Position numbers and translations under genes: made by a program. From the NCBI GenBank assembly GCA_965227295.1, contig OZ245742.1, positions 5,856,001 to 5,920,000 of the forward strand: a stretch of DNA of 64,000 nt. The letters run 5' to 3'. Positions 15,228 to 58,792 of this stretch are shown here, one piece after another (within the stretch, counting starts at the first letter, position 1; each line of letters starts with the position of its first letter). The notes beneath the pieces are model-generated. The model saw only the letters and a list, made by a program, of their open reading frames with translations, had not been told where the DNA came from and did no database searches. Source of the DNA: Leptonemataceae bacterium (GTDB taxonomy: Bacteria; Spirochaetota; Leptospiria; Leptospirales; Leptonemataceae).

Positions 15228-15231
15228 TCCC

Positions 15232-19069: not shown

Positions 19070-19220
19070 GCGAACATCGCGGGCGAAGGACGCGAACGCA
19101 CCTTAGCGCCCCGGGGCATTCCGTCATGTAATTTTTGGCCGGCCCGCTCCGCGACGTGTCTACAAACACTCCATTAACAATTCCGCATGACAGCACGGCC
19201 GCGCGGATCGATACGGACGC

Positions 19221-43247: not shown

Positions 43248-43557
43248 GGATTTGAGCCTTTGCGTAGTGTTCATCGATCACGGACGTGATGCGAATACTG
43301 CCAACCTCTTCGCGCTGATAGTAAACATCATCAGTTCCCGTATCTATAGCTTTTGTCCGAAAGACTTCAAGCTTCTGCCCGGGCTCCGCACCGTCTCGAT
43401 CACCGATACAAATCACGACTACTTCTTCTTTCACATCGACAACGTTGCCTCGCATGCCGTACTTGTGATAGAACTTCGAAAAGCTTGCACACGCGAGCGC
43501 ACTCGAAATCAAAAACAGACATGTCATCAATCGAATCGTTAATTTTATATGTTTCAT
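43201..43557 (-). CDS. Small lipoprotein (FlgT C-terminal-like beta domain)
   Basis: Lipobox ALAC; ICIG..DGA..GQ.L.V...VG.I.I..V....A.A. Confidence 0.65.
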   Translation of the reverse strand: MKHIKLTIRLMTCLFLISSALACASFSKFYHKYGMRGNVVDVKEEVVVICIGDRDGAEPGQKLEVFRTKAIDTGTDDVYYQREEVGSIRITSVIDEHYAKAQILSGQVQKYDMVELRD

Positions 43558-43768
43558 AGAGGATAGATTCAACGTAGAATCGGATTAAGTCCATCAAATT
43601 CGCGACGGCACTCCAAAAAATTCATAGCCTTCGGAGAACCGCACCTCGCGACAATGATCGTTTCATAATGCACGAGAAAGACTACGAGTGCCTGTCGATA
43701 CACTTCACGAACCATGAATGATACAGTGAGCCGTGACCTGACCAAAACTACTTCAATCGTCAGTTTTC

Positions 43769-45826
43769 TTAATCATCGGTCTCGTCGCGCGAAAGATCCA
43801 CGCTGCGCTTAAGCAACTGCGCGTTCACCGCGACGATCACGGTGCTGAGACTCATAAACACCGCGCCCACCGCCGGACTCAGCATGATCCCCAGCGGCGC
43901 GAGCACACCTGCCGCGAGGGGAATGGCAACGACGTTGTAGGCCGTCGCCCAGATTAGATTCTGAATCATCTTGCGATGCGTCGCACGACCGAAGAGCACC
44001 AGGTTGCTGATGTCTTTGGGATTGCTGTGCACGAGCACGATGTCCGCCGTCTCCGCGGCGACGTCGGTGCCGGAGCCGACGGCAATGCCCACGTCCGCCT
44101 GGGCCAGGGCCGGCGCGTCGTTGACGCCGTCACCGGTCATGGCGACGAACTCGCCGTCGCCTTGCAGTTCTTTAACGATGTCCTGTTTCTCGTGAGGCAG
44201 CACGCCCGCATAAAACCCGTTCAGGCCCAGCTCGTCGTGGACGCTCTTCGCGACGGTCTCATTGTCGCCGGTGGCCATCATCGTTTTGATGCCGGTGTCG
44301 TGCAAAATGCGAATCGCCTCGGGAGACTCGGGGCGTATGGAGTCCGCCAGGCCGACAAAACCCTTGAGTTCTCCGTCCACGACCAGAAAGACCACCGTCT
44401 CCGCGCCGGACGCGGCGGCCGAATCGGGAATCGTTATGCCGTTTTCCTTTAAGAAGCCCGGGCTGACCACCTTCACCTCGCGGGAATCCACGGACGCCTG
44501 CACACCCTTGCCGGTGATCGATTGAAAGCCTGACGCCTCCGGGACCGACAGCTCGCGCTTTTCACAGGCTTGAACGATGGCCTGCGCAATAGGATGCTCC
44601 GAATTTTTTTCGAGGGCCCCCGCAAAGCGCAGCACGTCATCCTCCGAAAACGAGTCCGACACGCTCACGACCCGCTGCACGCCGAATTCGCCGGTGGTCA
44701 GGGTGCCGGTCTTGTCGAAGACGATCGTAGAAATTTTGCGCGCGCTTTCGAAGGCGGTCCGATTGCGAATCAGCAGGCCGTTTTGTGCGGAGATGGCCGT
44801 CGAAATCGCGGCCACCAGGGGAATCGCCAGACCGAGGGCGTGCGGACAGGAAATCACCATCACGGTCACCATGCGTTCCAGAGCGAAGACGAACTCGTAG
44901 CCGAGATAGAGCCAGACCGCTAAGGTCAGCGCGCCGGCGGTTAAGGCGACGAAGGTCAGCCAGCGCGCGGCCCGGTCGGCCAGGCGCTGGGTGCGGGACT
45001 TCGTTTGCTGGGCCTCTTCGACCAGGCGAATCACTTTAGAAAGATACGAGTCCTCGCCGGTCTTGTTGACGCGAATGCGCAGCGAGCCCTCACCGTTGAC
45101 GGAGCCGCCGATCACTTCGTCGCCCGCGGACTTGCGCACCGGCTCCGACTCGCCGGTGAGCATGGATTCATTGAGATAGCTGTTACCGTCTTCGATGGTG
45201 CCGTCGGTGGGAACCTTTTCCCCGGGCTTGATCAGCAACAGATCGCCGGACTGTACGTCCTCCAGCGCCACGTCGTTCACGTCGCCGTCCTCGTCGATGC
45301 GATGCGCTTCGTTGGGCATCATCTCCACGAGCAGTTCCAGGGCGCGGGACGCACCGAGCACCGAGCGCATCTCGATCCAGTGGCCGAGCAGCATGATGTC
45401 GATCAGCGTCGCCAGCTCCCAGAAGAACATCTTGCCGGACAGGCCGAAGACCACCGCCGAACTGTAAGCGTAGGCCACGAAGATGGCCAGGCCGATTAGA
45501 GTCATCATGCCCGGGTTGGCCCGGCGCACCTCATCGAACGTGCCGCGCAGAAACGGCCAACCGCCGTAGAAAAAGATCATCGACGACAGCCCGAACAGAA
45601 CGTAGCGGCTCCCTGGAAACTCCAGGGAGAAACCGAGAAACGACTGGATCATCGGCGAAAGAACGAGGACCGGCACGGTCAGGACGGCCGATACCGCCAG
45701 GCGCTTCTTGAAGTCCCGGATCATTTGCCGGTGATGATCGCCGTGATTGTGACCGCCGTGGCCGTCGTGATTACCGTGGTCGTGATTGTGTTCGGCGTGT
45801 TTTTCGTGGTCTTCGTGATGTTTCAT
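43769..45826 (-). CDS. copB: Copper-translocating P1B-3 type ATPase
   Basis: His-rich N-terminus, TGES, CPH, DKTGT, SEHP, GDGVNDAP, YN/MS motifs. Confidence 0.93.
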   Translation of the reverse strand: MKHHEDHEKHAEHNHDHGNHDGHGGHNHGDHHRQMIRDFKKRLAVSAVLTVPVLVLSPMIQSFLGFSLEFPGSRYVLFGLSSMIFFYGGWPFLRGTFDEVRRANPGMMTLIGLAIFVAYAYSSAVVFGLSGKMFFWELATLIDIMLLGHWIEMRSVLGASRALELLVEMMPNEAHRIDEDGDVNDVALEDVQSGDLLLIKPGEKVPTDGTIEDGNSYLNESMLTGESEPVRKSAGDEVIGGSVNGEGSLRIRVNKTGEDSYLSKVIRLVEEAQQTKSRTQRLADRAARWLTFVALTAGALTLAVWLYLGYEFVFALERMVTVMVISCPHALGLAIPLVAAISTAISAQNGLLIRNRTAFESARKISTIVFDKTGTLTTGEFGVQRVVSVSDSFSEDDVLRFAGALEKNSEHPIAQAIVQACEKRELSVPEASGFQSITGKGVQASVDSREVKVVSPGFLKENGITIPDSAAASGAETVVFLVVDGELKGFVGLADSIRPESPEAIRILHDTGIKTMMATGDNETVAKSVHDELGLNGFYAGVLPHEKQDIVKELQGDGEFVAMTGDGVNDAPALAQADVGIAVGSGTDVAAETADIVLVHSNPKDISNLVLFGRATHRKMIQNLIWATAYNVVAIPLAAGVLAPLGIMLSPAVGAVFMSLSTVIVAVNAQLLKRSVDLSRDETDD

Positions 45827-45856
45827 AGATTCCTCCGATGTACCCGGGTGCCTTAT

Positions 45857-46147
45857 TCAGGGACGCCGGGCCGTCGCCTCGCGCAGCGAAAAGTTGTAAA
45901 TCCCGGCGATGCACGCACCACAGAGATACGCCAGCACGAAGCTCTGGAAAAAACCCAGGCCGGCCTCCCACCAGGGCACGTCCATGCGAATCACGCCGCT
46001 GACGTCCAGGCCGTGCAACAGGCTGTTGAAAAAGAGAATCGTCCCTTCGCGTCCCACGCTCATCATCAGAATGATGCAGCCGGCGTACAGCAGCGCCGCC
46101 GTGACGCCCCAGGCGATACCGAACTTAAGTACGTTTATGCGAATCAT
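45857..46147 (-). CDS. Small membrane protein (DUF5676-like)
   Basis: Two TM helices, LYAGC, FFNSLLHG, IYN. Confidence 0.7.
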   Translation of the reverse strand: MIRINVLKFGIAWGVTAALLYAGCIILMMSVGREGTILFFNSLLHGLDVSGVIRMDVPWWEAGLGFFQSFVLAYLCGACIAGIYNFSLREATARRP

Positions 46148-46349
46148 GCGAACCTCCCCGGTGAGAATGACCTTCGTGGCCGTCTCCGCCGTGCATGCCG
46201 CTCATAAGAAAAAAATGCGCGGCGAAACAAATCATCAAAAAGAAGAACAGTGACCACGAGTCGCCGGGCAAAAAGGCCGGTGCGAAAAATATCAACAGCA
46301 GCGGCAGCACGCAGATCAAAAGCATCCATATCATGTGAAATCTCATCAT
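46125..46349 (-). CDS. Small His-rich membrane protein (DUF2933-like)
   Basis: HMIWMLLICVLPL...CFAAHFFLM...His-rich tail; GGAGG RBS. Confidence 0.65.
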   Translation of the reverse strand: MMRFHMIWMLLICVLPLLLIFFAPAFLPGDSWSLFFFLMICFAAHFFLMSGMHGGDGHEGHSHRGGSHDSHKRT

Positions 46350-46407
46350 CAAACCTCCGAAACCAGAACAGCTCCCCGCCGCTTTTTCCGGGACGGGGAG
46401 CTTCGTT

Positions 46408-46950
46408 TTACATTTGAAACTCGGCTTCGTGAACGTGCTTCTTTCCACCGTAGGTGAACTCGGCCTTCACTTTGTAAGTTCCGGAACCCTGCATGGAAAA
46501 ACCGATGCCGTGGTGGTGCATGCCGCCGCCGGCCATCACGTGGCCCTCACCGTCGGCCAGGACCTTGCCGTCCGGCCCGGTGACCGTGATCTTGAGGCCC
46601 TTGGCGTCCTTGATGACCTTCTTCGTATCGAGTTTCATCAGCGTCAGGCTGAGGTGATGCTGACCGGTGTCGTGCATACCGTGCATGTCCACGTTCATCA
46701 TCTTCGCCATATCCGCGTGGCCTTCGGCGGTCATGAGGTCGAAGGCGACCTGAACGCCGTCGTGTTTGACGACCTTCGTCATGTTTTTTCCCGAGTGCAT
46801 GCCGGGATTATGGCCGTCCATCATATCGCCGGAGTGATGGTCACTCATCGCACCGCCGTCATGGTGATCCCCCGGCTCGCCGCCGCAGGCAACGCCCAAT
46901 AAGGCGCCCAAGACGAGGACCGGAATCAATTTCAATAAACTCATAAACAT
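46408..46950 (-). CDS. Met/His-rich lipoprotein, putative periplasmic copper-binding protein
   Basis: Lipobox GVAC; multiple M/H clusters; Ig-like beta C-terminus. Confidence 0.75.
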   Translation of the reverse strand: MFMSLLKLIPVLVLGALLGVACGGEPGDHHDGGAMSDHHSGDMMDGHNPGMHSGKNMTKVVKHDGVQVAFDLMTAEGHADMAKMMNVDMHGMHDTGQHHLSLTLMKLDTKKVIKDAKGLKITVTGPDGKVLADGEGHVMAGGGMHHHGIGFSMQGSGTYKVKAEFTYGGKKHVHEAEFQM

Positions 46951-46985
46951 CTCCTTATATTAAGTTAAATAAAGACTGGCGCCCT

Positions 46986-47603
46986 TCAATGGTCTCCGGT
47001 TTCCAGAAATTCTCCCCGCGGGCCGACGCCGTGCAGGTGCGTGAGTTCGGCCCCGAAGTGCCCCGCCGCGGAGACCAGGACCGCGGCAGCCAGCATCGTA
47101 GCGGCGGCCACGAATTCCAGCCAGCGGCGACGCAGCCCAAGGCCGGCGAGTTGCAAAGCAAGCGCCGCGGCGGCCGTGTAGATCGTGGCGTAGGCGAAAA
47201 AATCGTGGTTGGCGAGGACCGCCCGGGCTTCCGGAGTAAGACCGGTCGTGTGCGGGTGCACGAAGTAGGCCGCAACCACGCCGCCGATCAGTCCGACGGC
47301 GCCCACGGCGATACCCGTCCGGATCAGCGTGTCGTTTCGGAAGATTAAACCGACCGGATACAGAATCGCCGCGAGCAACAACAGGACGATCGGGAAGTGA
47401 ACGACCAAAGGATGCAGCGTCGGAAAGGCCGCGAGAGGCGGCGCGACCGCTTCCAGAAGTCCGGCCTCGGGAGTGGATTCCGCGGCACTCTCCCCGGATG
47501 CGTGGTCCCCGGGCCCGTGGGCATGCAATGGCAGCGCCGCCAGATAGATGGCCAACCCCAGGGCTAATATTTTCTGAATGATATTTAAGACCCTTGCTTT
47601 CAT
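46986..47603 (-). CDS. DUF2231-like membrane protein
   Basis: LHPLVVHFPI, AGHFGAEL..HGVG. Confidence 0.8.
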   Translation of the reverse strand: MKARVLNIIQKILALGLAIYLAALPLHAHGPGDHASGESAAESTPEAGLLEAVAPPLAAFPTLHPLVVHFPIVLLLLAAILYPVGLIFRNDTLIRTGIAVGAVGLIGGVVAAYFVHPHTTGLTPEARAVLANHDFFAYATIYTAAAALALQLAGLGLRRRWLEFVAAATMLAAAVLVSAAGHFGAELTHLHGVGPRGEFLETGDH

Positions 47604-48847
47604 TAGGAGCTCCCCCGGACGACCGCGGCCAGAAGCAACCCCGCGGCGAGCCAGGCCGCGCAGAGATAAACCACGATTCGTTTCAAGCTTACGCCCGCGT
47701 CGCCGCCGTGGTCGTGATCATGACCGCCCGCGCTCTGCTCCCGGCGCGCCCGACGATAACGATACGCGAGCCAGGCCATTCCGAGGCTTACCAGAACGAA
47801 GCCGAGGTTTAGATAGAACGTGTAGTCGATCTTAATGCGCGTCACTTCCTCGACGACCCGGCGGCTCTCCGGCGTGATCCCGAACCAGGCGAAAGCGCCG
47901 TTGAGAATCAGGGCGGTGGATACCATGCTGATATACATAATCAGCGCAATATAGAGCGCGATCCTGGTGCCGTAGTACTTGCGATTGACCATGACCAGAG
48001 GCGGCACGATCAAATCCGAATAGATGAACGCCATAATGCCCGCGAAAAGCACGCCGTTGGCGTTCAGAACCGTGGCGAGGGGAATATTACCCATAGAACC
48101 GATGAATGTGGCCGCGGCGACAAAGGGACCGACGAGGGCGTTCTCGACGGCGATCAACCACGCCGGTAACGTCTCCGTGTACCCGGTTAAGAAGATCGCC
48201 TCCCAGAACGACTGCGGGACCAGCGTCGCGATGATGCCGGCGATGGTGAAGCCGATGAGGATCTCTTCCCAGACCATGCCCCACTCCGCGAAAAAATTCC
48301 GCCCGACGCGATTCCAGCCGTCGGCGCTACGAATGCGTTCGCGCCACGAAAAATCTTCGGTGGCTTCGGTGGCGTGCTTCTCGACGCGACGCCGGGCCGC
48401 CTCGGCCCATTCGCGGGGCAACGTCCCACGCATGAGCACGCTGCTGATCGCAATCAGGACTATGCCGCCGACGAGTTCAGCCATGAGGAACTCAAAGCCG
48501 AGAAAGATATAAATCAAAATGCCCAGCTCGATGACGAGGTTCGTCGAGGCGAACATAAAGGCGACCGTCGCAATAAAATGCGCCCCCTTGGCGACCAGGG
48601 TCCGGGCCGCCGCCAGGGCCGCGAAAGAACACGACGACGACAGCGCTCCGAAGGCCGTGGCGATGCCGATGCTGCGCGGCCCGGCCTCGCCCAGATTCTC
48701 CGCCAGGCGCCGACGCGGTACGAAGGCCTGGATCATCGCGCTGATCGTGTAGCCGAGGACGAAGGCCCAGCCGGCCTTCCAGAAAAACCCCAGCGACGCG
48801 TACGCGGAATCGCTGATAGCCGGAATCATCGATACGATAGTTTCCAT
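47603..48847 (-). CDS. Putative permease (DUF318/ArsP-like)
   Basis: SSSCSFAA, FMFASTNLVIELG, SMGNIPLA. Confidence 0.8.
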   Translation of the reverse strand: METIVSMIPAISDSAYASLGFFWKAGWAFVLGYTISAMIQAFVPRRRLAENLGEAGPRSIGIATAFGALSSSCSFAALAAARTLVAKGAHFIATVAFMFASTNLVIELGILIYIFLGFEFLMAELVGGIVLIAISSVLMRGTLPREWAEAARRRVEKHATEATEDFSWRERIRSADGWNRVGRNFFAEWGMVWEEILIGFTIAGIIATLVPQSFWEAIFLTGYTETLPAWLIAVENALVGPFVAAATFIGSMGNIPLATVLNANGVLFAGIMAFIYSDLIVPPLVMVNRKYYGTRIALYIALIMYISMVSTALILNGAFAWFGITPESRRVVEEVTRIKIDYTFYLNLGFVLVSLGMAWLAYRYRRARREQSAGGHDHDHGGDAGVSLKRIVVYLCAAWLAAGLLLAAVVRGSS

Positions 48848-48871
48848 AAAATTATCTCCACTGAACAAGAA

Positions 48872-51800
48872 TCATAGATTGCGCCCGGGCTTCGGGACGG
48901 TCGCCGCAACTTCCGGCGTGAGCACTTCATCCGCCTCGACTTCGTGAAACGGACTCGCCGCTCCGTCCCTGCGCAGGCGCCGCAACTGCAACCATTCGTA
49001 GATGGTCGGAATCAACACGAGCGTCACCAGGGTGTCGGTGACCAGGCCGCCGATCATCGGCGCGGCCAGGCGTTTCATTACGGAAGAGCCGGAGTCCGTG
49101 GCCCACATGATTGGAATCAAACCCAGCAAGGTCGTCGCCACAGTCATGATCTTCGGCCGCACGCGGCCCACGACGCCTTCAAGCATCGCGGCGCGCAGTT
49201 TCTCCGGTGTATCCAGGCCGTGTTCGCGTTTGTGTTTCGCGAGCACCGTGTCGAGGTACACAAGCAGCACGATGCCCGTCTCCACGGACAAACCCGCCAG
49301 AGCAATGAAGCCAACGTCCGTGGCCACGCTTCGATTGTAGCCGAGCAGGAACATCAACCATACGCCGCCGGTTACCGCGAAGCCCAGGCAGCCCAGGATG
49401 ATCGTCGTCTCGGTAAAGTTCTTAAAGTGCAGGTAGAGGAGCACGATGATGGCGATAAGCGTCAGTGCGCCGGCGATGCGCAGCCGTTCGGCGGCGCGCT
49501 CCAGATACTCGTATTGGCCGCTCCACACCAGGGTTACGCCCGGGGGCTGCTGCAACTCGCCGGCCTTCAGCTTGTTGCGAATCAGCGCCTTCGCGTTCTC
49601 AACGTAGCCGGCCACGTCCTGGGAACTCTTCAAATCCACGAAGATCCACGCGGTCTTGCGGGCGTTTTCGGTTTTGATGCCCGGCGGCCCGGTGCGCAGG
49701 CGCAGCTCCGCCACGTGGGAAATCGGAATGTTCGCCCCCGACGGCGTGCGCACCCAGACGTCTTTTAACTTCTCCAGATCATCTCTTAGCTCGCGAGGAT
49801 AACGCACGTTCACGGGATAGCGCGCCAGGCCCTCGACCGTTTCGGTGACGTTCATCCCGCCCACGGCCGTCATGATCGTATCCTGCACGTCGCCGACGGT
49901 CAGCCCGTACCGCGCCGCCGCCTCGCGATTGATGACGTAGTCGATGTAGCGGCCGCCCGTAACGCGCTCCGAAACCACCGAGGCCGTGCCGGGCACGGTC
50001 TTGAGCACGGCTTCGAGTTCGCTGCCGTAGCGCGCCAGTTCGCTTAAGTCGTCCCCGAGCAACTTTACGCCCACCGGCGTCTTGATGCCCGTCGCCAGCA
50101 TATCGATGCGCGTGCGAATGGGATACGTCCAGGCGTTGGTCAGCCCCGGGAACTGAATTTTGTCGTCCAGCTCTCGCATGATTTTTTCGACCGTCATGCC
50201 CGACCGCCACTCCGAGCGGTCTTTCAGGATGATCGTAGTCTCGATCATGGTGAGCGGGGCCGGGTCCGTGGCCGTCTCCGCGCGGCCGATCTTACCGAAG
50301 ACGTGCTTTACCTCGGGCTGCTCCATGATGATGGCGTCCGTGCGCTGCAGAATTTCCCGGGCCTTGGTAATCGAAATGCCGGGCAGCGTGGTGGGCATGT
50401 ACAGGATGTCGCCCTCGTTCAGCGGAGGCATGAATTCACCGCCGATGCCTTTCACCAGCTTCTTGCCGTTCGAAAAAGGAACGGGAATGCCGTAGATTGG
50501 GATCAGGGTCAGTAACATAAAACCACCGAAAGCTAAGAGAAACGTCGCCTTGCGGTCCAGAGCGGCGTCGATCAGCGGGCGGTACGTGCGCACGAAAAAG
50601 CGCGCGATGGGGTTGTCCTCTTCCGCCCGGGTGTCGCCGCGCACAAAAAGCGAAATCAGCACCGGGATGATCGTAATTGCGATGACGGCGGCGAAGGCCA
50701 TGGCGAAGGTCTTGGTCAACGCCAGGGGGCGAAAGAGCCGGCCGGACTGCTCTTCCAGCACCAGGATCGGCAGAAACGAAACGGTAATGATCAACAGCGA
50801 AAAGAAGAGCGCCGGCCCGACTTCGAGAGACGCCCGCCGGACGACGACGTCGTGGGCGGCGTCGGGATCGTGCTCCCGGTGCTTGTGCACGTTTTCGACG
50901 AGCACGATCGAGGCGTCCACCATCACCCCGATGGCGATGGCGATGCCGCCGAGGGACATGATATTGGCGTTGATGCCGAGAAAGTCCATCAGCGCCAGGG
51001 ACGCGAGAATCCCGATGGGCAGCGTCACCACGGCCACTAAGGCCGAGCGAGCGTGCATTAAGAAAACGGCGATAACGATCGCCACGACGAGCATCTCCTC
51101 GACCAGCTTCCAGGAAACGTTTTTGACGGCGCGATAGATCAAATTCGAACGATCATAGGCCGTGCGAATTTCGACCCCCTCCGGCAGCGACGGTCGAATC
51201 TCTTCGATGCGCTGCTTCACGCGTTCAATGATTTCGAGCGCGTTTTCGCCGAAGCGCATCACGACGATGCCGGCCACCACCTCCCCCTCGCCGTTCCACT
51301 CGGCGATGCCCCGGCGAATCTCCGGGCCGATCTGCACGTGGGCGACGTCGTCGATGGTGATGGGATTGCCCTGATCGTCCACGCGCAACACCACACTGCG
51401 AATATCGTCGACGGACTGGATGTAACCCAGGCCCCGCACCATGTACTCGGTCTCGCCCATCTCGATCAGTCGCCCGCCGGTGTCGCGGTTCGAACGCGCC
51501 AGACGCGAGCGCACGGTTTCGAGGGAAATGTCGTGCAGCAGCAAGCGCGTGGGATCCACCTCGACCTGGTACTGCTTCACGAAGCCGCCGATGCTCGCGA
51601 CCTCGGCCACGCCTTTGAGGCTGGCGAGTTCGTAGCGAATGCTCCAGTCCTGGAGCGAACGCAGCTCCTGGTTGTTTAACTTTCCGCTGGTGTCGGTTAC
51701 TATGTACTGATAGACCCAGCCCACGCCGGTGGCGTCGGGACCGAGCTGCGGCTTCACGCCCGGCGGCAGGCGCGACGACGAGTTGATGTACTCCAGCACC

Positions 51801-52126
51801 CGCGAGCGCGCCCAGTAGATGTCCGTGCCGTCCTCGAAGATCACGTAGACCATCGAGAAACCGAAGAACGAATAGCCCCGCACCACCTTGGCGTGGGGCA
51901 CGGCCAGCATGGCCGACGTCAGCGGGTAGGTAACCTGGTCTTCGACGACCTGGGGGGCCTGGCCGGTGTACTCGGTGTAGATGATCACCTGCACGTCGGA
52001 GAGATCCGGAATGGCGTCGATAGGAATGGTCTGGATCGCCCGCAGTCCGGCGAAGACCACGGCCCCGGCGGCGATCAAGACGAGCGCCTTGTTCTTGAGC
52101 GAAAATTCGATAATGCGTGCAATCAA
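48872..52126 (-). CDS. cusA: CusA/SilA-type heavy-metal RND efflux permease
   Basis: DAIPDLSDVQV, GPDATGVGW, NIMSLGGIAIAIGVMVD, EFMP, RIDML, RPKIMT. Confidence 0.93.
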   Translation of the reverse strand: MIARIIEFSLKNKALVLIAAGAVVFAGLRAIQTIPIDAIPDLSDVQVIIYTEYTGQAPQVVEDQVTYPLTSAMLAVPHAKVVRGYSFFGFSMVYVIFEDGTDIYWARSRVLEYINSSSRLPPGVKPQLGPDATGVGWVYQYIVTDTSGKLNNQELRSLQDWSIRYELASLKGVAEVASIGGFVKQYQVEVDPTRLLLHDISLETVRSRLARSNRDTGGRLIEMGETEYMVRGLGYIQSVDDIRSVVLRVDDQGNPITIDDVAHVQIGPEIRRGIAEWNGEGEVVAGIVVMRFGENALEIIERVKQRIEEIRPSLPEGVEIRTAYDRSNLIYRAVKNVSWKLVEEMLVVAIVIAVFLMHARSALVAVVTLPIGILASLALMDFLGINANIMSLGGIAIAIGVMVDASIVLVENVHKHREHDPDAAHDVVVRRASLEVGPALFFSLLIITVSFLPILVLEEQSGRLFRPLALTKTFAMAFAAVIAITIIPVLISLFVRGDTRAEEDNPIARFFVRTYRPLIDAALDRKATFLLAFGGFMLLTLIPIYGIPVPFSNGKKLVKGIGGEFMPPLNEGDILYMPTTLPGISITKAREILQRTDAIIMEQPEVKHVFGKIGRAETATDPAPLTMIETTIILKDRSEWRSGMTVEKIMRELDDKIQFPGLTNAWTYPIRTRIDMLATGIKTPVGVKLLGDDLSELARYGSELEAVLKTVPGTASVVSERVTGGRYIDYVINREAAARYGLTVGDVQDTIMTAVGGMNVTETVEGLARYPVNVRYPRELRDDLEKLKDVWVRTPSGANIPISHVAELRLRTGPPGIKTENARKTAWIFVDLKSSQDVAGYVENAKALIRNKLKAGELQQPPGVTLVWSGQYEYLERAAERLRIAGALTLIAIIVLLYLHFKNFTETTIILGCLGFAVTGGVWLMFLLGYNRSVATDVGFIALAGLSVETGIVLLVYLDTVLAKHKREHGLDTPEKLRAAMLEGVVGRVRPKIMTVATTLLGLIPIMWATDSGSSVMKRLAAPMIGGLVTDTLVTLVLIPTIYEWLQLRRLRRDGAASPFHEVEADEVLTPEVAATVPKPGRNL

Positions 52127-53535
52127 TGGTTGTGCCCTCCCATCGGATCGGGTGCTTCATCCATAGAATCGCCGTCGCCCGCTCCCGCGGAGCCGCTCCC
52201 GCCCCGCATTTTACGCACGGCCTCCTGGATGCGCGACTCGGAGTCTAACAAAAACTGACCGGAAGTTACCACGGCCTCGTGTTCGGAGAGGCCGTCGAGG
52301 ATTTGCAGGCGGTCGTTTTCGTCGGTGACGCCCACGCTTACGATCCGCGGCTCGAAGGCGCCGTTGCCGCGGTAGACGAAGGCGAGCGTGCGTTCCCCGG
52401 TGCGGATGACCGCCGAAGACGGCACCGTCAGAAACTCCCCGTCCAGCGTGCGGCGCAGCTTGAGCGTAGCGTACATGCCGGGCTTCAACGTGCGCCCCGG
52501 ATTCGCGAAGGATACACGGACGCGCAGGTCCCGGGTCTCCGCCCGCATAAACGGAAACACGAAGCTGACCCGTCCCTCGAAGGTCTTCCCCGGTACCTGG
52601 GGGACGATCATCTCCACCGGCAGCCCGGTCTCCACGAAGGGAATATCTTTTTCGGGAATGTGAATGTAGGCCCACACGGTCGAAAGATCGACGATGCGAA
52701 ACAGATCCGTGCCCTCGGCGATCTTCGCGCCCTGGACGACGTTTTTTTCGACGACGACGCCGGAAATGGGCGCGTGGATCGTGAGCAGCCGCGACGGCGT
52801 GCCGCGCTTCTCCAGCGCCGCGATCTGCGCCGCGCTGATGTTCCAGTACTGTAATCTACGGCGAGCGGCGCTTAAGAGGCGCTCCACCTCCGGCGAAGGC
52901 CCCAGACTCTGCTTGCTTTTATAGAGCTGAAGATACTCCTCCTGAGTCGCCACCAGCTCCGGGCTGTAGACGCCGGCCAGGGCCTGGCCCCGGCGCACGC
53001 TGGCGCCGGTAATGTTCACGTAGAGTTTTTCGACCCAGCCGCCGAAGCGGGCGTTCACCACGGCTTCGGCGTTTTCGGCAAAGTCGATGTGCGCCACGGC
53101 GCGAATCTCTTTCGTAATCTCCCGGCGCGTAACGATCTCGGTGTTCACACCCATTTTTTGAATGACCGCCGGGTCCACCCGCACGATGGGCGGGGCCGGC
53201 GCACTGCTCGCATCATCGGCAGCTCCGTCGCCGTCGGCCGCGCTCATGTTGGCGCCGTCAGCCTCCGCCCCGGAGCCGCCGTCGTCGCCGCCGTGCACCG
53301 TGCCGTCGTCGTGCAGGTGCGGCTTCATCGGAACCAGGTCCATACCGCAAATCGGGCACGAGCCCGGGCCGTCCTGAATGACCTGGGGATGCATGGGGCA
53401 CGTGTACAGACTCGACGCCTCCGGCGCCGACGCACCGCCCCCGCGCAGAGCCGGGACGGCGAAGTAGATACCGGCGCCGAGTCCGCCCAGAGCCAGGACA
53501 ATGATTAACATGGTAATATACTTTTTCCGATTCAT
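52123..53535 (-). CDS. cusB: CusB-type RND periplasmic adaptor with heavy-metal-binding domain
   Basis: YTCPMHP...CPICGMDL, YSPEL..QEEYL, LKPGM, FLLDSES. Confidence 0.9.
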   Translation of the reverse strand: MNRKKYITMLIIVLALGGLGAGIYFAVPALRGGGASAPEASSLYTCPMHPQVIQDGPGSCPICGMDLVPMKPHLHDDGTVHGGDDGGSGAEADGANMSAADGDGAADDASSAPAPPIVRVDPAVIQKMGVNTEIVTRREITKEIRAVAHIDFAENAEAVVNARFGGWVEKLYVNITGASVRRGQALAGVYSPELVATQEEYLQLYKSKQSLGPSPEVERLLSAARRRLQYWNISAAQIAALEKRGTPSRLLTIHAPISGVVVEKNVVQGAKIAEGTDLFRIVDLSTVWAYIHIPEKDIPFVETGLPVEMIVPQVPGKTFEGRVSFVFPFMRAETRDLRVRVSFANPGRTLKPGMYATLKLRRTLDGEFLTVPSSAVIRTGERTLAFVYRGNGAFEPRIVSVGVTDENDRLQILDGLSEHEAVVTSGQFLLDSESRIQEAVRKMRGGSGSAGAGDGDSMDEAPDPMGGHNH

Positions 53536-54950
53536 GGTGTTTCCTCCGCATCCGCGGTGTACGCGGGGATGATGACGTTCAGCAGGCGGGCCTCTTCGAA
53601 GACGAGTCGCTCACGTTCGCCGCGCAGGCGGATCACCTCGGCCTCCTGCATAAAGAGGGTATTCCAGCTTTCCAGCAGCGCGAAGAAGTCGATGCGACCG
53701 GTCTCGTAAGCGAGGCGCGCCGAGTCCCGGGCCCGGGCGGCCTGGGGAATCAGGCTGTCCTGGAACAGACGGATGCGCTCCGTAAGCGAACGGCGGTCCG
53801 CCGCGAGGGAACGCAGGCGATACTGGATGCGCTGGATCACCTCGACCCGCGAGATCCGCGTGGCCCGGTCGCGTTTCTCCTGAGCGTCCACGGCGGAGCC
53901 CGCGGAGAGCGCCGACCAGAGCGGCACCGTCATGGTAAAGCCGAAGCTGTAAAAGTCCTCGCCGAAGGCGGGATCGCCGCTGATTTTCTCTCGTTCGCGA
54001 TACGAGGCGAAGACCTCGAAGTCCGGCAGGTACTCCATCCGGGCGAGGCGGCGCCGCTCGCGCACGGCCTGTAGTTCCAGGTCCATCATCGCGACGTCGA
54101 GGGAAGCGGCGGCCACTGCCTCTTCCTCGACGCCGATGCGCCGGACCTGCTCCGACAGCGTCGCTCGATACTCATCAAGGACGCCGTCGGCGCTCAGCGC
54201 GCGCAGCAGTTGTTGCGCCCCGGCGTCGTCGGCCCGCTCCGCGTCAGATTTCGCCGGGTCCGGGATAAGATAGTAGGCGAGCATGGCCAGCTTCGCCTGG
54301 CGCCGGCCCTCAAATTCCGTGTTCCGCTGTTCGAACGTGGAAAAATTGAGCTCGGCCCGGGAGACGTCGGCCAGCGATCCGCGGCCGACGGAGTATCGCG
54401 TGCGCGCCACGTTGCTGACCAGTTGAAACCGGCGCGCGTAGTCCTGATTGAGTCGCAGGAGCCGGTCCAGGACCACGGCCTCGGAAGCGTCTTTCAAAAA
54501 TTCATAGGCGAGATTATTTTTATCGACCGCCAGCCGGAGCAGGGCCTGCCGGGCCTCAAGGTCGGAGACGTTGGCCTGAGTCGTCAGGCGTCCGGGAAAC
54601 GGGATCGGCTGGCGCACCGAAAACTCAATGCCCGTCATGGGCGTTTGATCTCGAATGATGCGCAGATTTTTCTTGTACGGCAGATTCGACCAGGCGACCC
54701 CGACCCTCGGGTCCGGGTACTTCCAGGCGGCGTACTCCGCCAGATCCTTGCGCGCGGCGGCCTCAAGAGCCTGCAAGCGAATCCGCGGGTGGTGCGTGCT
54801 GATCTCGACCACAATGCGATCCACGCCCGGGGATTCCCGGTCCGGCGCTTCGGCTTCGACAGCCGAACGTTCTTCCGCCGGGAGCACGCGGCCCGTGATC
54901 AGTACGAGCAGGCAGAGCACTCCCCAACGGGCAATTCTGTGGTGGTGCAT
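53532..54950 (-). CDS. TolC/CusC family outer-membrane efflux protein
   Basis: Signal peptide, PDP, Q.IPFPG, LPDF, AYETGRIDF; upstream of cusBA. Confidence 0.85.
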   Translation of the reverse strand: MHHHRIARWGVLCLLVLITGRVLPAEERSAVEAEAPDRESPGVDRIVVEISTHHPRIRLQALEAAARKDLAEYAAWKYPDPRVGVAWSNLPYKKNLRIIRDQTPMTGIEFSVRQPIPFPGRLTTQANVSDLEARQALLRLAVDKNNLAYEFLKDASEAVVLDRLLRLNQDYARRFQLVSNVARTRYSVGRGSLADVSRAELNFSTFEQRNTEFEGRRQAKLAMLAYYLIPDPAKSDAERADDAGAQQLLRALSADGVLDEYRATLSEQVRRIGVEEEAVAAASLDVAMMDLELQAVRERRRLARMEYLPDFEVFASYREREKISGDPAFGEDFYSFGFTMTVPLWSALSAGSAVDAQEKRDRATRISRVEVIQRIQYRLRSLAADRRSLTERIRLFQDSLIPQAARARDSARLAYETGRIDFFALLESWNTLFMQEAEVIRLRGERERLVFEEARLLNVIIPAYTADAEETP

Positions 54951-55043
54951 AGGACCTCCATTCCTTCGATACAATCCGGGGCGAACCCGGCGGTACGCGG
55001 GCAGACCGCGCCGATGCAGTCGTAACTACGAAGAAATGGAGGT

Positions 55044-55487
55044 TTAGATCAGCAGGATTTGCAGTCGCATGTGCAGCGCGACATTCGACGGCGGAGGGGC
55101 GTGCGGAATCAATCGATCGGCAGAAACACGGCGGGTGGGCGCGGAGACCGGAAGGTCACGCCGGGATTCCAACAGCGGGACAAAGGCCAACTCGGGCGCC
55201 GGAAAGAACACGCTGTCCACCGGAGCAAGGACGGCGGCGTGAGCCCGAACGCAACAGTCCGTCTCGCCGGGCTCGGGAGCGGACGGCGCCGGGGATTCAG
55301 CGGCGACCCGATGACAAGAAGGCAGCGTATCTGTTGCGGACGCGTCCATCGCCGACTCCGATAACGGCGACGCACATAGTCCCAGCGGGCAGAGCGTCAG
55401 CTGTAGAACGGCACCGAGTGCCGCCACCGATCCCATCCAGCGCAGGCCGGAGGATCCCGGCCGTATTTGCTTGCTCACTGCTCGCAC
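55044..55487 (-). CDS. Cys/His-containing hypothetical leader gene of the cus operon (DUF2946-like)
   Basis: TM, PSCH, DCC, PPP...LHMRLQILLI tail; start uncertain. Confidence 0.55.
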   Translation of the reverse strand: MRAVSKQIRPGSSGLRWMGSVAALGAVLQLTLCPLGLCASPLSESAMDASATDTLPSCHRVAAESPAPSAPEPGETDCCVRAHAAVLAPVDSVFFPAPELAFVPLLESRRDLPVSAPTRRVSADRLIPHAPPPSNVALHMRLQILLI

Positions 55488-55551
55488 GACTCCAGCATAA
55501 AGGTGCGACTGTGTAACTTCGTCAAGAAAAAAACGTGGACGGAACTCGATG

Positions 55552-55568
55552 ATACCGCATATGGGTAT
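55552..55568. promoter_or_regulatory. CsoR-type operator candidate
   Basis: ATACC-gcatatg-GGTAT between divergent csoR and the cus operon. Confidence 0.55.
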
Positions 55569-55575
55569 GCAGTAT

Positions 55576-55872
55576 ATGGCATCCCGAAAGCTTCGTAAGA
55601 AAACAGTGCGACAACCCCGCAAGAGCACCATGCAAACACGCATGAACAAGATCGCCGGACAGGTCGCGGGAATCCAGGACATGATCGAACGAGATCGCTA
55701 CTGCGTGGACATTATGACGCAAATCAGCGCTGTAAAGTCCGCTCTGGACAGCGTCGCCATGCTTTTGTTGGAAGACCACACCCGGCACTGCGTTAAGGAT
55801 GCCCTCGTCGGCGGCAACGGAACTCAAAAAATCGAAGAACTCGTTCGCGTCGTGAAGAAATACACAAAGTAA
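55576..55872 (+). CDS. csoR: CsoR family copper-sensing repressor
   Basis: RMNKIAGQV.GI..M, RYCVDI, HTRHC (C-H-C ligand set). Confidence 0.88.
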   Translation: MASRKLRKKTVRQPRKSTMQTRMNKIAGQVAGIQDMIERDRYCVDIMTQISAVKSALDSVAMLLLEDHTRHCVKDALVGGNGTQKIEELVRVVKKYTK

Positions 55873-55917
55873 AGGAGCGCCTCGTTGATCCGGGGCGCTC
55901 CCTGTGAATGCGCGGGC

Positions 55918-56160
55918 TCAGGCCAACGCCGCCTTCACCGTGGCCACATCGACGCCGCGACCGGCGCAACAATCCGCAGGCTTGCCGTTGACGAGCACAG
56001 CCGGAATGGATGCAATCCCCAGGGACTTTGCCCGGGACACGACCGCTGGATCGTCCATGTCCAATATCGTAACTTCTTTAGAACCGGCGATTCCATTCAA
56101 TTCGACAATCGTGTCTTCGCAGAGAGCGCATCCGGCGCTGAATACTTCGACTTTTTTCAT
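55918..56160 (-). CDS. Small thioredoxin/glutaredoxin-like protein with CxxC and CC
   Basis: SAGCALC, SIPAVLVNG, DCC. Confidence 0.8.
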   Translation of the reverse strand: MKKVEVFSAGCALCEDTIVELNGIAGSKEVTILDMDDPAVVSRAKSLGIASIPAVLVNGKPADCCAGRGVDVATVKAALA

Positions 56161-56165
56161 AATTT

Positions 56166-56909
56166 TTACCTCACTTGTTTAAATTCACATTGAGTGCAAT
56201 CTTGTATCTGAGCAGGCTGCGGCCACGCGTTCCACAGGGAGACGCATAGCAGGCCGGCGGTTCCAGCGTAGAGCAGCGGATCCGAGTTCCAGTAAAACTT
56301 TCCGAGCAGAATGACCGCTGACGCGACGAGCCCGGCGGCGAACGGAAGATAGCCGCGTCGTTGCTTCGCTCGAAAAGCCAGCAGGAACAGCACGACGCCG
56401 AGAGAGACCGCTGTGATGGGCAGCAGGTACGGCGTATAATTCCAGAAGCCGATGCCGAGCGACCCGAGGATCGCGGCGTAGGCCGGCAGGCAGGCGGCGC
56501 ACGTCAGCTTCGGCAGCAGGGCCGGGACAATCGCCACTATCGATCCAAGAATGCCGCGCAGACCCCGCGATGGGCCGGCGTCGATCGCGTGATCAGGCCC
56601 GGCTGAGAGAGCGGCCAGTACTCTGTCGACCGGTGGCGCCCCGGTTTTTTCATTTGAACCATAGAGCCGACACGCATTCGCCGTGTCACCGGGCGGAGCG
56701 CCGCCGACATCCACACCGTCCACGAGAATGGTCGGTGAGCCGTAGGCTTTCGCGTAAGCGGGGGCGTCTTGCGCCGCGCTGTCCCACTCCACCCAACGTG
56801 ATGGCAGGCGCAACGTTGTCAGGGCCTCGATAATTACCTGCCGGGCCCGATGCGTATTCGGGCAATCAGCACTAAAAATGAGTTCTACGTCTTTCAAATC
56901 TGCCTCCAT
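56166..56909 (-). CDS. Thioredoxin-like domain fused to MerC-like mercury transporter
   Basis: DCPN...GSPTILVDG...ACRLY, then LTCAACLPAYA and four TM helices. Confidence 0.75.
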   Translation of the reverse strand: MEADLKDVELIFSADCPNTHRARQVIIEALTTLRLPSRWVEWDSAAQDAPAYAKAYGSPTILVDGVDVGGAPPGDTANACRLYGSNEKTGAPPVDRVLAALSAGPDHAIDAGPSRGLRGILGSIVAIVPALLPKLTCAACLPAYAAILGSLGIGFWNYTPYLLPITAVSLGVVLFLLAFRAKQRRGYLPFAAGLVASAVILLGKFYWNSDPLLYAGTAGLLCVSLWNAWPQPAQIQDCTQCEFKQVR

Positions 56910-57313
56910 TAATTCACTTCCTCTTCCAATGCCTCAAGAATCGGACAGCGATTGCTCTGCTCCTCGGCCAGACAGGCGTCGGCGAGTCGCGAAAGGACCT
57001 GTTCCATTTTCTTCAGTGCTTTGATTTTCGCGCGCACCTCGGCGAGCTTTTGCTCGGTATTGCGGCGGACCTGGCCGCAGTCGGTGGGATTGCTACGGCG
57101 CAGGAGGAGTAGCTCCTGAATCTGGGCCAGCGTAAAGCCGAGGGATTTAGCCTGCTTGATAAACAGGATCGTCTGGAGCACTTCTTCCGGGTAACGGCGA
57201 TAGGTATCCGCCCGTTCCGGTTGCTGAATCAGCCCTTTCCGTTCATAGAAGCGAATGGTTTCTACGTTTACTGCTGCTTTATCGGCGAGCTGCCCGATGG
57301 TGAAAGACTCCAT
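56909..57313 (-). CDS. merR: Hg(II)-responsive MerR family regulator
   Basis: TIGQLA...VETIRFYERKGL, LGFTL.QI, three Cys (TDC, DAC, CPIL). Confidence 0.88.
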   Translation of the reverse strand: MESFTIGQLADKAAVNVETIRFYERKGLIQQPERADTYRRYPEEVLQTILFIKQAKSLGFTLAQIQELLLLRRSNPTDCGQVRRNTEQKLAEVRAKIKALKKMEQVLSRLADACLAEEQSNRCPILEALEEEVN

Positions 57314-57322
57314 AACAGGGTT

Positions 57323-57354
57323 AATATACACTCCGTACTGTAGTACGGTGTCAA
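57323..57354 (-). promoter_or_regulatory. MerR operator/promoter with elongated 20-bp spacer
   Basis: TTGACA-CCGTAC taca GTACGG agtg-TATATT. Confidence 0.9.
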
Positions 57355-57541
57355 TACCGGAGAGTAAATTTTTCTAACCGGGTTTGCTCTGATGAAGAAC
57401 TCTCAGGACACTAAATCACCCGGTCTGAAGGTTCAGACCCCTGAGGCTACCGCTCGACAATCATAAAGCAAGGATCAATGGAAGTTCCGCCTGGTAGACA
57501 AGGCCGCTCTATCCGGCAAAAGAAACACAAGTGTCAAACCA

Positions 57542-57758
57542 GAAATCGCCGATTGAATCTTGTTTTCGCAGCGGGCGTCCGGCAGGGGGGCGAAAGAGGG
57601 CCGCGGCTGTGAGTCTCACGGGCGGGGCTCCCGAGAACGCGCGCGATTTCGCCGCCCCGCTGCGAGTCTGACACGGTCCGCCCCGCGAACGCGCGCGCCG
57701 AGGCTACCGAACCTCGGCGCGCGCGCTCGCGGGCCTGTGTGGATTGTAGACCGGAGAT
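57542..57758 (-). repeat. Right 217-bp inverted repeat
   Basis: Reverse complement of 40423-40639. Confidence 0.95.
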
Positions 57759-57855
57759 ATGCGCGGATTTTCGAGCGGCTGCGGGCATGAAACGAGGGTC
57801 GATGACGTACAGTGAAGCTGTCCAGCAGAAATTCACAAAAACGGCCTCGGTGGAT

Positions 57856-58133
57856 TTGTGGCCACAAAGGCGGAGCATTTGTCGAGGCGCGTGGTGCGGT
57901 CGGGGGACATCGCGCCGGCGGAAACCGGACGCATCCCGGGGTTCACGGCCGGCCGGCGGATCTGGCGGGCGGTGCGGCCTGGTGTGAATCCGGGGATTAA
58001 GAAAACCGGGGCGGTGGCGGTCGGATCGCGGGGGCCTCGCGCCGCGGACAGCCTTCGAAGCGGGGCGGCGCGGAAATCGGCCTGCCCGCGAGCGCCGCGC
58101 GCCTCGACAAATGCGAGGGGCGTGTGGCCACAA
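57856..58133 (+). other. Multi-stem structured non-coding element (candidate ncRNA or ssDNA structure)
   Basis: 42-nt arms 57856-57897/58092-58133 pair (11+23 bp, G-U compatible); inner stems at 57933-57997 and ~58038-58072. Confidence 0.6.
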
Positions 58134-58231
58134 GAACGGAAGAGAGGTAAAGAACATCATCAGCGGCAAGGGAACCACGGACGACGGAATCAGAAAACTG
58201 TACAAGCTTGAGATGAAAAGAGACTAACTCG

Positions 58232-58348
58232 CGATCACGGAAGACGATCACGGAAGACGATCACGGAAGACGATCACGGAAGACGATCACGGAAGACGAT
58301 CACGGAAGACGATCACGCAAAGGAATCACGCAAAGGAATCACGCAAAG
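58232..58348 (+). repeat. Tandem array of nine 13-bp units
   Basis: 6x CGATCACGGAAGA, 1x CGATCACGCAAAG, 2x GAATCACGCAAAG. Confidence 0.95.
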
Positions 58349-58792
58349 AGGGCAAACATCAGATGAGGAACACTTAGAGATCCGGAGCGCCTGGCGTCGC
58401 CGGATTCAATGAGCTTGCCCGGGAGAAATCCGGCCGCTTTTCCGGGACGTGGATTCCAGCAATCGAAGACGTCGGTGCTAACTAATTTCGGCCGAATCCT
58501 AACCCCCGCCGCTCCAGCTCGTATTGGTTTTTCCAGGCAATCACGGGAAGTCGAAGTTCACAGCCAGCGCCGAGATTCCGCGCCGCGTTTCGTCGGCAAC
58601 GCGTCTCTGCTTATCGCATGCTGCGCCTGGGAACCGCCGTATACAAATATCCCATGCAGGCGAAAACCCACCGGGTCTTCGCCTGCATGGGCGACAACGT
58701 TATCGCTCCTCTTCCCAGCCGTGAGCCTGCTGCGTGCTATGCGGTCGCGGCAATGTAACACCTGACAGGCCTCTATCCCTTCCTGCCCACCC

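Follow-up and report, generated by a model that had tools for sequence, protein, structure and literature searches.

The locus and its hairpin

The stretch of DNA analysed here (the window) is 64,000 nucleotides (nt) of a Leptonemataceae bacterium, G000:C1:5856001-5920000, where G000 is the source genome, a single contig of 5.94 Mb. Pfam matches mark the region as a metal-resistance island, with a MerR gene (56909-57331), a MerC-like protein, a CsoR-type repressor, a P-type ATPase, an RND pump encoded as three genes (48872-54974) and two CDF transporters (58793-60527). At 57856-58133, 97 nt outside the end of an insertion sequence (IS) fragment, lies a hairpin of 278 nt. We find that this is the long form of a conserved, strand-specific stem-loop, and that it belongs to an inverted-repeat cargo module and not to the neighbouring IS1595-like transposon. 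A first-pass annotation had placed it just outside the right inverted repeat of a mobile element. That repeat corresponds to the opening 217 nt of an IS1595-like IS 1246 bp long, which has a full copy at 40423-41668 (ends ATCTCCGGTCTACAATCCACACAGG and ATCTGTGGTCTACATTCCCCACACC; Pfam DDE_Tnp_IS1595). The selected part of the structure is its base, consisting of a helix P1 made from two TGTGGCCACA boxes, a purine-rich internal loop of 7-8 x 8 nt, and a helix P2 of 23-30 bp. The G-rich interior of ~180 nt is free to vary. The parts of the hairpin are as follows.

57856..57867, plus strand: box 1, the 5' strand of P1, TTGTGGCCACAA (inverted-arm detection, RNA fold)
57868..57874, plus strand: 5' side of the internal loop, AGGCGGA, purine-rich (unpaired in all folds)
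57875..57904, plus strand: 5' strand of P2, a 23-bp core (57875-57897) and a weaker extension (stem comparison, RNAalifold)
57905..58084, plus strand: apical domain, G-rich and variable, containing the inner stems of the first-pass annotation (copy comparison)
58085..58114, plus strand: 3' strand of P2, core 58092-58114 (stem comparison, covariation)
58115..58122, plus strand: 3' side of the internal loop, GAGGGGCG, retained in the short form (fold, alignment)
58123..58133, plus strand: box 2, the 3' strand of P1; the position homologous to the junction of 58130 and 58131 is the group II intron site in three short-form copies
57864..57868 and 58107..58111, plus strand: left and right direct repeats ACAAA, the intervening 243 nt being absent from the short form

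The inverted arms (57856-57904 and 58085-58133) are 49 nt each, 76% complementary and separated by a 180-nt spacer. From outside to inside each carries the 12-nt box TTGTGGCCACAA, 7-8 unpaired purine-rich nt and a 23-bp stem. Two T:G pairs (G·U in RNA) are the sole deviations in that stem (57875-57897 with 58092-58114), and pairing can be extended to ~30 bp. The 5' side of the loop is kept as AAKGCGGA in 6/7 aligned copies. Two inner stems lie within the apical domain: ATCCCGGGGTTCAC (57933-57946) with GTGAATCCGGGGAT (57984-57997), in which 12/14 positions pair, and CGCGCCGC (58038-58045) with GCGGCGCG (58065-58072), which encloses CTTCGAAG (58053-58060). The plus strand folds as RNA at -172.5 kcal/mol (z -6.17, with 0/200 shuffles equally good) and the minus strand at -147.0 kcal/mol (z -6.60); with DNA parameters the values are -98.5 and -84.6 kcal/mol, respectively. 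With a plus-strand z of -6.17 and a minus-strand z of -6.60, the z-scores alone do not give a strand preference.

The arms and fold are therefore as first described, and they are intact in short-read contigs. A 277-nt contig piece (57860-58136) was recovered from two public runs with 0 differences, at a depth of 294 against 314-315 for unique flanks. As short-read contigs carry this piece unchanged at single-copy depth, the structure is not an assembly artefact. The first reading that no credible gene lies at the structure also holds: the minus-strand open reading frame (ORF) at 57534-58205 encodes 223 aa, is Arg/Pro-rich, continues through the IS end and has no Pfam match. A coding role, either for this ORF or for an in-frame optional segment, was rejected, given the Arg/Pro-rich junk translation and deletion sizes that are not all multiples of 3 (see below).

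Long and short forms in an inverted-repeat module

Three long copies are present in G000. Besides the window copy there is one at 19986-20261 (90% identical) and one at 4545749-4545972, in which the arms are conserved and the interior is partly replaced, ~100 nt of it being absent. Arm identity between these paralogues is 96% where the flanks reach 87% or ~50%, and 94-98% where they reach ~50% and 33%. The apical domain of the window copy is 86.7% identical to that of copy 19986 and ~50% identical to that of copy 4545749; the interior has the same orientation in 3/3 copies.

A search with the neighbouring DUF6908 protein identified five inverted DUF6908 gene pairs in G001, a second genome of the same genus. 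Each pair has a long hairpin (204-231 nt) in one arm and a short form in the other. Taking both genomes together, every long copy (8/8) lies in one arm of an inverted repeat of 1-2.4 kb whose other arm holds the short form, so that all 8/8 pairs combine one long with one short form. The G000 partners are inverted and 9.6-14 kb apart, in repeats of ~1-2 kb that are 96-100% identical within a pair and 72-90% identical between pairs.

The short form in G000 is a 35-nt sequence, TTGTGGCCACAAATGCG and GGGGCGTGTGGCCACAA joined by A or T, found at 5924164-5924198, 8622-8656, 34330-34361 and 4555341-4555372; a fifth site (5030311) has a diverged version. All are on the strand opposite to that of the long copies. 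Removing the 243 nt between the two ACAAA repeats from the long form gives the short form. Short-read contigs contain the corresponding joint (57863 to 58107, skipping 243 nt with 5 ambiguous bases) at a depth of 321.6, and both forms are present in them at about single-copy depth. Direct repeats (CAAATGCG or CAAATAC) bound the long/short difference in G001; the segment absent from the short form measures 243 nt in G000 and 196, 195, 195, 169 and ~183 nt in G001. Deletion from long to short fits better than insertion, because the final four bases of P2 remain in the short form, as does the right-hand loop, because P2 extends into the right direct repeat, and because the long form is symmetrical (box, 8 nt, stem, then stem, 8 nt, box).

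Sites 5924164 and 8622 are suggested to be one locus assembled twice, on account of depths of 294 (long piece), 322 (joint), 600 (flank) and 314 (unique) together with the redundant contig ends. The ends of the G000 contig repeat internal sequence (5915634-5928112 versus 1-12570 and 5896415-5909425 versus 5925542-5938550, at 96.3% and 100% identity), and copy numbers near them are to be treated with care.

The order of parts in an arm, read inward on the plus strand, is outer flank, hairpin, purine-rich leader, 13-nt array, a non-coding stretch X, a terminator-like hairpin and the DUF6908 gene, which is transcribed outward. In the window these neighbouring features are:

57542..57758, minus strand: IS1595-like left-end fragment of 217 nt (left inverted repeat 57734-57758), 100% identical, inverted, to 40423-40639
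57759..57855, plus strand: 97-nt flank separating the hairpin from the IS end; the partner arm repeats it along with the hairpin site; homologous GTCCAG..AAT in G001
58134..58231, plus strand: purine-rich leader with GGA motifs (paralogue comparison, skew, motif count)
58232..58348, plus strand: 13-nt tandem repeats, CGATCACGGAAGA ~7 times and then GAATCACGCAAAG 3 times, with ANGGA in each unit (repeat detection)
58349..58650, no strand assigned: conserved non-coding stretch X, ~72% identical to 4545977-4546390; the arm at 20484-20981 has an SNase-homologue gene instead
58651..58691, minus strand: terminator-like hairpin whose tail is T-rich, located at the module's inner edge (terminator scan)

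The array varies in length, from ~10 units in the window up to ~1 kb at 4552317-4553328, and in G001 its position is occupied by 13-nt repeats of the GGGAAA type that follow the hairpin. Diverged paralogues conserve the terminator-like hairpin at 58651-58691, with two compensatory pair changes (ATGCAGGCGAA/TTCGCCTGCAT versus GTGCAAGCGAA/TTCGCTTGCAC). The three G000 pairs enclose different cargo. The window pair has CDF and RND efflux genes, pair 19986/34330 a 2184-aa PT-HINT protein and pair 4545749/4555341 unknown ORFs. For DUF6908 itself, PHROGs and a protein atlas give only 'unknown, phage-associated'.

Four of the G001 pairs have an IS1595-like left-end fragment by the long form and tandem full IS copies by the short form, the G001 homologues lying 95-97 nt outside the left ends of related IS1595-like copies. 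The first-pass expectation that homologues would be found beside related transposases is thus borne out. Its proposal that the structure is the true, longer end of the transposon is not: the arms are unlike the IS ends (see below) and the hairpin is present without any IS at G000 4545749 and at G001 locus L188. At these two IS-free loci P1 directly follows the stop codon of an ORF that corresponds to the C-terminal part of a large serine recombinase, the two species sharing 54% identity in this ORF.

Pairing is conserved on the plus strand

Seven long forms, three from G000 and four from G001, were aligned for covariation analysis (35 pairs, 245 cells). RNAalifold retains the closing helices only, P1 (10 bp) and P2 (~25 bp). 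The cells comprise 219 Watson-Crick, 18 G·T, 1 A·C and 7 other combinations, and 8/35 pairs show at least two Watson-Crick states. Pairing reaches 96.7% of cells, against 32-47% when the partners are slid by 1-3 columns. The covariation score is 0.302 versus 0.172 shuffled, and 18 cells are changed on both sides versus 7.5 shuffled; neither value was reached by any of 500 shuffles. P1 is 98.6% paired in the 7 homologues with 2 compensated pairs, and helix 2 is 98.6% paired with 4 pairs changed on both sides. In an eighth copy, from the fifth G001 pair, the 17-bp P2 is perfect, and C>U/G>A adds another compensation. The G001 boxes are no longer palindromic; one pair has TGTGGTTACAA twice, and it still pairs via G·T on the plus strand. 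The plus-strand fold is more stable than the minus-strand fold in 8/8 long forms.

These data show that the closing helices P1 and P2 are selected for pairing, and, given 18 G·U cells against 1 A·C cell, on the plus strand only. The first-pass view of a plus-strand-selected fold therefore stands for the closing stems and fails for the inner ones. In the three G000 copies the inner helices are 70-89% paired, most departures are unpaired and covariation is not significant (4 pairs changed on both sides versus 1.9 shuffled, reached by 29/500 shuffles), whilst the G001 interiors do not align with the G000 interior and have a different apical hairpin.

Several lines of evidence point to the plus strand as the sense strand, namely the wobble bias, a positive GC and AT skew across ~57700-58450, GGA motifs on the plus strand only, the orientation of the intron described below and the stop codon abutting P1. 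Replication-linked C-to-T bias would act on the opposite strand here, so that the wobble bias needs either selection for G·U or transcription-linked deamination of the non-template strand. Both would imply transcription in the plus sense.

Within 57864-57882, and at the same place in the G001 copies, the left direct repeat (CAAAGGC here and CAAATGC in G001) is able to pair locally with GCATTTG, where P2 starts, which would give a small alternative hairpin with a GGA loop. At G001 locus L189 both direct repeats and the P2 strand are changed together (CAAATAC/GTATTTG). A structural switch may lie behind this joint change, or else one arm may have converted the other.

A group II intron occupies the short form

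A 1984-nt element splits box 2 (between TGTGGCCA and CAA) at 34330, 4555341 and 5030311, that is at 3/3 module sites. It matches Rfam group-II-D1D4-6 (130.7 bits) and Intron_gpII (33.9 bits) and encodes a 437-aa protein with RVT_1 and GIIM domains only, in which no endonuclease domain was found. The copies (32346-34329, 4553357-4555340, ~5028306-5030305 and 3742426-3744427) are at least 99.4% identical, and the fourth of these, 3742426-3744427, sits behind a similar sequence. The intron lies in the plus sense of the hairpin, directly 3' of the 8-bp stem TGGCCACA/TGTGGCCA, and has invaded 0/3 of the long forms in G000.

The short form is a homing site of a group IIC-like intron, 'IIC-like' being by site only, with an inverted repeat directly 5' and the sense orientation. 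Group IIC introns are described in PMC1702495 as found downstream of terminator motifs or other inverted repeats, and PMC7923331 presents attC sites as known targets. The present sites are like those of group IIC introns in that the intron is 3' of a stem, in sense orientation, at 3 short-form copies. They are unlike the terminator-like homing sites in that no T-run follows the hairpin on either strand and in that the long form is not invaded. The lagging-strand template carries the sense strand of all four intron copies, in agreement with the orientation given in PMC8914252 for RmInt1, an endonuclease-less intron reported there to reverse-splice into single-stranded lagging-strand template.

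Long and short forms follow the direction of replication

Cumulative GC skew and dnaA place the G000 origin at ~1.18 Mb and the terminus at ~4.09 Mb, with all G000 sites on one replichore. For G001 the skew is negative in 9/9 samples from 0.42-2.98 Mb and positive in 10/10 samples from 3.30-6.18 Mb, which puts the origin at 2.98-3.30 Mb (dnaA at 3.15 Mb). In all 8/8 pairs, which lie in 5 separate islands and of which the tandem pairs are not independent, the sense strand of the long form is the leading-strand template and that of the short form is the lagging-strand template. G001 pair L188, on the other replichore, is flipped accordingly. Interrupted palindromes are described in PMC4245961 as forming hairpins on the lagging-strand template. 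The orientation rule fits slippage as the origin of the short form, in which the interior would have been lost between direct repeats of 5-8 nt by slippage across the hairpin.

Distribution of the element

The short-form pattern was searched in 156 genomes of the order, and true matches came only from G000 and G001, with none in G002. Seven pattern matches in genus g24 were discarded, since they lie inside one conserved coding gene. BLAST of 57800-58400 against 40 relatives did not match the structure, and one match in G007 is a coding lysine/serine repeat. Exact arm or short-form patterns gave 0 matches in genome contigs (two patterns), 0 in metagenome contigs and 0 in viral contigs, and blastn against plasmids and phages gave no match. 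The box-pair pattern recovered at least 123 loci from metagenomes, nearly all of them unrelated 21-nt tandem repeats. The box alone occurs 8 times in G000, every time inside these modules, and 0-2 times per genome in 60 relatives, in unrelated contexts. The boxes were also considered as the palindromic operator of a clade-wide regulator; this was rejected, the boxes being neither enriched in relatives nor palindromic in G001.

Rfam likewise provides no family for the hairpin. At 55000-60000 of the window, at E up to 1, the sole match is MIR8788 (25.1 bits against a gathering score of 124) at the IS end (57682-57733), and neither of two other loci scanned gave a relevant match, locus L004, which carries copy 4545749, having none at E up to 0.01. 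Within the searches made, the element is confined to one genus and has no counterpart among described families.

The sole outside look-alike of the short form is on metagenome contig L046 (1-120), where TTTGTGGCCACAAACCTGAGGGGGATGTGGCCACAA is followed by a purine-rich stretch. The contig begins 20 nt before this sequence, and the neighbouring ORFs have no Pfam match.

Likely function and alternatives

Our preferred reading, to which we give an even chance, is that the hairpin is a plus-strand RNA duplex at the junction of an upstream unit with the GGA-repeat region, where it would serve processing, stabilisation or insulation. The hairpin would be present in plus-strand transcripts, directly after the upstream transcription unit and before the leader and the 13-nt array, and its P2 duplex would be the kind of substrate cut by double-strand-specific RNases. 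It is this near-perfect duplex of 23-30 bp that makes processing, stabilisation or insulation the likeliest job. Intrinsic termination is excluded, as there is no U-tract: a U-run is missing after the stem, box 2 precedes CAAGAACGGAAG, and neither strand has a T-run.

Among the closest known systems is retroregulation of lambda int by sib, a long RNase III hairpin downstream of the integrase gene. As at sib, a duplex of P2 (23-30 bp) and P1 directly follows a recombinase reading frame, on the sense strand, at the two IS-free loci. At both G000 4545749 and G001 L188 there is thus a near-perfect duplex of at least ~20 bp downstream of a gene on its sense strand, as judged from sequence. Unlike at lambda, the frame upstream encodes the C-terminal fragment of a large serine recombinase rather than a tyrosine integrase. 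In most copies an IS end takes its place, and there is no sequence relation to sib.

A number of observations weigh against an RNA role. A scan of 57300-58900 found no sigma-70-like promoter, and the only terminator-like sites in it were 58691-58651 and 57348-57333, with none at the hairpin. The IS-associated copies have no plus-strand gene upstream, so that a transcription start would have to lie in the IS end or the flank. None of the listed sequencing runs is recorded as RNA, and Rfam holds no family for the hairpin, either in the window or at L004. The homologues come from two genomes of one genus only, and the independent events are few, since most of the compensated pairs are fixed differences between two clades. 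The wobble bias is also compatible with a hairpin in single-stranded DNA, G·T being the least harmful DNA mismatch. Within a species the arms are nearly invariant, the unpaired loop included, which would be expected of a site read by a sequence-specific protein no less than of an RNA. Lastly, the orientation rule may have arisen by chance (about 0.03-0.06) or have been inherited from a single asymmetric ancestral pair.

If the RNA reading is true, the hairpin is a cis element selected on one strand, outside the described RNA families, at a recurring junction of metal-resistance, toxin and defence islands. Its two forms would then offer a natural experiment on how hairpin survival depends on replication direction, on what an endonuclease-less intron needs of its target, and on GGA-repeat RNA on a mobile island. 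Even if the hairpin is only a structural junction, it remains useful for marking the module boundaries, which would otherwise pass for the ends of the IS-flanked transposon next to them.

The main rival holds that the hairpin acts in plus-strand single-stranded DNA, at forks or during strand transfer, as a recombination or boundary site that is attC-like or resembles the ends of transposons read as hairpins, the RNA being irrelevant. We regard it as unlikely, with the following in its favour. The short form is used by an intron with RVT_1 and GIIM domains only, and RmInt1 is reported to use single-stranded lagging-strand template (PMC8914252); moreover, the intron copies lie on that template in 4/4 cases. 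The module homology breaks exactly at the hairpin (flanks ~50%/33%, arms 94-98%), as at recombination sites, the pairs are inverted around cargo, and the long or short state tracks replication direction. The layout of the hairpin, with a paired box, an unpaired spacer, a second helix and a variable top, also resembles that of an attC site.

Integron attC sites are single-strand hairpins with paired boxes, an unpaired central spacer and a variable terminal structure, and have the core consensus RYYYAAC ... GTTRRRY. The likeness extends to tops of widely differing lengths and to function on one strand. However, the hairpin here ends TTGTGGCCACAA ... TGTGGCCACAA and lacks the RYYYAAC/GTTRRRY cores, measures 205-278 nt, and occurs as inverted pairs 5-14 kb apart rather than in a cassette array. 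The repeat arms reach 97-330 nt past the hairpin, so that it is not the terminus of the unit. Nor were known families of hairpin-reading enzymes found in the genome, the Y2 search being without a working control. For the integron integrase (TIGR02249) the best score is 85.6 bits against a cut-off of 265, with hits at 2.96 and 5.67 Mb, away from the islands. The Y1 transposase PF01797 gave 0 matches in the genome (its control worked in 6/14 genomes). Relaxases PF03432 and PF08751 and Rep_trans PF02486 gave 0 matches each with working controls, other relaxase and Rep families not having been searched. With these three families missing from the genome, the first-pass suggestion of an origin or transfer structure is not supported either.

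The arrangement also recalls interrupted long palindromes, in that arms of 49 nt flank a 180-nt spacer, the short form fits a direct-repeat deletion and the state tracks replication. Unlike such palindromes, the one here is conserved with compensatory changes across species, and for this reason the hairpin is not merely a hazard.

In the first-pass view, all 278 nt of the multi-stem fold form a structured non-coding RNA gene with functional inner stems, which we consider improbable. The window copy does fold as a closed multi-branch domain (z -6.2), and the two closest copies share some inner pairs (helix 4, 88.9% paired). Against this stand the weak pairing of the inner helices and the 29/500 shuffles that reach their both-side changes, the ~100 nt of interior missing from copy 4545749, and G001 interiors that differ in sequence and apical hairpin. 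The predicted topologies also vary between copies, and no Rfam family was matched.

We give the same low probability to a miniature inverted-repeat transposable element (MITE), which is non-autonomous, or to paired, inverted binding sites for a protein on double-stranded DNA, with the arms as transposase or recombinase sites and the interior as filler or an invertible segment. Conserved arms with a variable interior, direct repeats of 5-8 nt around the missing part and an IS1595-family element 97 nt off would all suit such a reading. However, all copies occupy one position of one module, with none elsewhere in the genome, and there is no target duplication around the 278 nt (flanks GGTGGAT to the left and GAACGG to the right). 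The 243-nt segment has no terminal inverted repeats of its own, and P2 extends into the right direct repeat, so that an insertion would need to have matched its target. Derivation of the arms from IS1595-like ends was rejected, as the similarity is at chance level: the local alignment scores 8, where shuffled sequences average 7.2 and 7.8 and do as well in 630/2000 and 1107/2000 cases. Equal orientation of the interior in 3/3 G000 copies speaks against an invertible segment, and binding sites in double-stranded DNA do not predict that non-palindromic G001 boxes still pair via G·T, with a bias of 18:1. The hairpin is like REPIN and MITE palindromic repeats in its size (200-280 nt), long inverted arms and variable interior. 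It is unlike them in having 3 copies only, a single module context, no target duplication and no RAYT/Y1 transposase in the genome. REP/REPIN sequences with RAYT were rejected on the 0 matches to PF01797 and on a box that occurs only 8 times in G000.

A functionless quasi-palindrome, left as a by-product of rearrangement in a highly recombining island, is very improbable: the region is rich in segmental duplications, IS copies and inversions and the assembly ends are redundant, but the compensatory changes, 96.7% pairing across two species, arms far better conserved than flanks or interior, and a long/short arrangement constant in 8/8 pairs all argue against it.

The GGA array

The motif ANGGA occurs 12 times per 227 nt on the plus strand of this part of the window and 0 times on the minus strand, the genome-wide density being 3.0 per kb; at 4552300-4553355 there are 79 GGA motifs in 1056 nt. 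G000 has one CsrA gene (1294010-1294165, 85.7 bits). An Rfam scan of 55000-60000 of the window at E up to 1 gave no CsrB/Rsm match. It is possible that the 13-nt GGA array is a CsrA-titrating RNA on a mobile island. A wider proposal, which we think doubtful and rate well below the RNA duplex reading, is that hairpin and array form one new unit. The 5' duplex would be a processing or stability switch for a 'sponge' of 10 to ~80 GGA motifs that possibly titrates CsrA, with its state set by replication direction. If so, it would be a dimorphic regulatory element dependent on replication orientation, at both ends of an undescribed family of cargo modules in which outward-facing DUF6908 genes surround metal-efflux, toxin or defence cargo.

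Further arrays were observed at G000 20259-20448 and 8240-8613 and at G001 loci L185, L187 and L188, with one GGA (ANGGA or GGGAAA) per unit and on the plus strand only. In the main array unit, GAUC...GAUC could form a 4-bp stem with ACGGAAGAC as its loop.

Neighbouring mobile and defence-like genes

The 1246-bp IS1595-like IS occurs in head-to-tail tandem copies 8 nt apart (TGTTCTAG), in G000 regions 5924296-5926795, 8754-11253, 34459-38228 and 5032378-5034970. Three composites consist of a full IS and an inverted solo left end of 217-222 nt. The first (window 40423..57758) encloses the metal-resistance genes, the second (10008..19888) encloses OLD-TOPRIM and UvrD genes, and the third is at 5030391..5033641. 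The arrangement of full IS and solo left end is also found in G001. Within the second composite, at G000 13070-17292 and outside the window, a gene for an OLD-like ATPase/TOPRIM protein is followed by a UvrD-type helicase gene, a Gabija-like pair.

Also outside the window, at G000 21783-28337, the 2184-aa PT-HINT protein, which is of the polymorphic-toxin type, and small downstream ORFs lie between inverted DUF6908/SNase arms. At the two IS-free loci (G000 4539313-4545746 and G001 L188 11944-16999) the C-terminal fragment of the serine recombinase is inverted relative to a fuller copy a few kb off. The full copy and the fragment in G000 have 623 bp in common at 100% identity. Defence-like genes lie between the recombinase copies, encoding an SbcC-like protein in G000 and an HD-CE/HATPase protein in G001.

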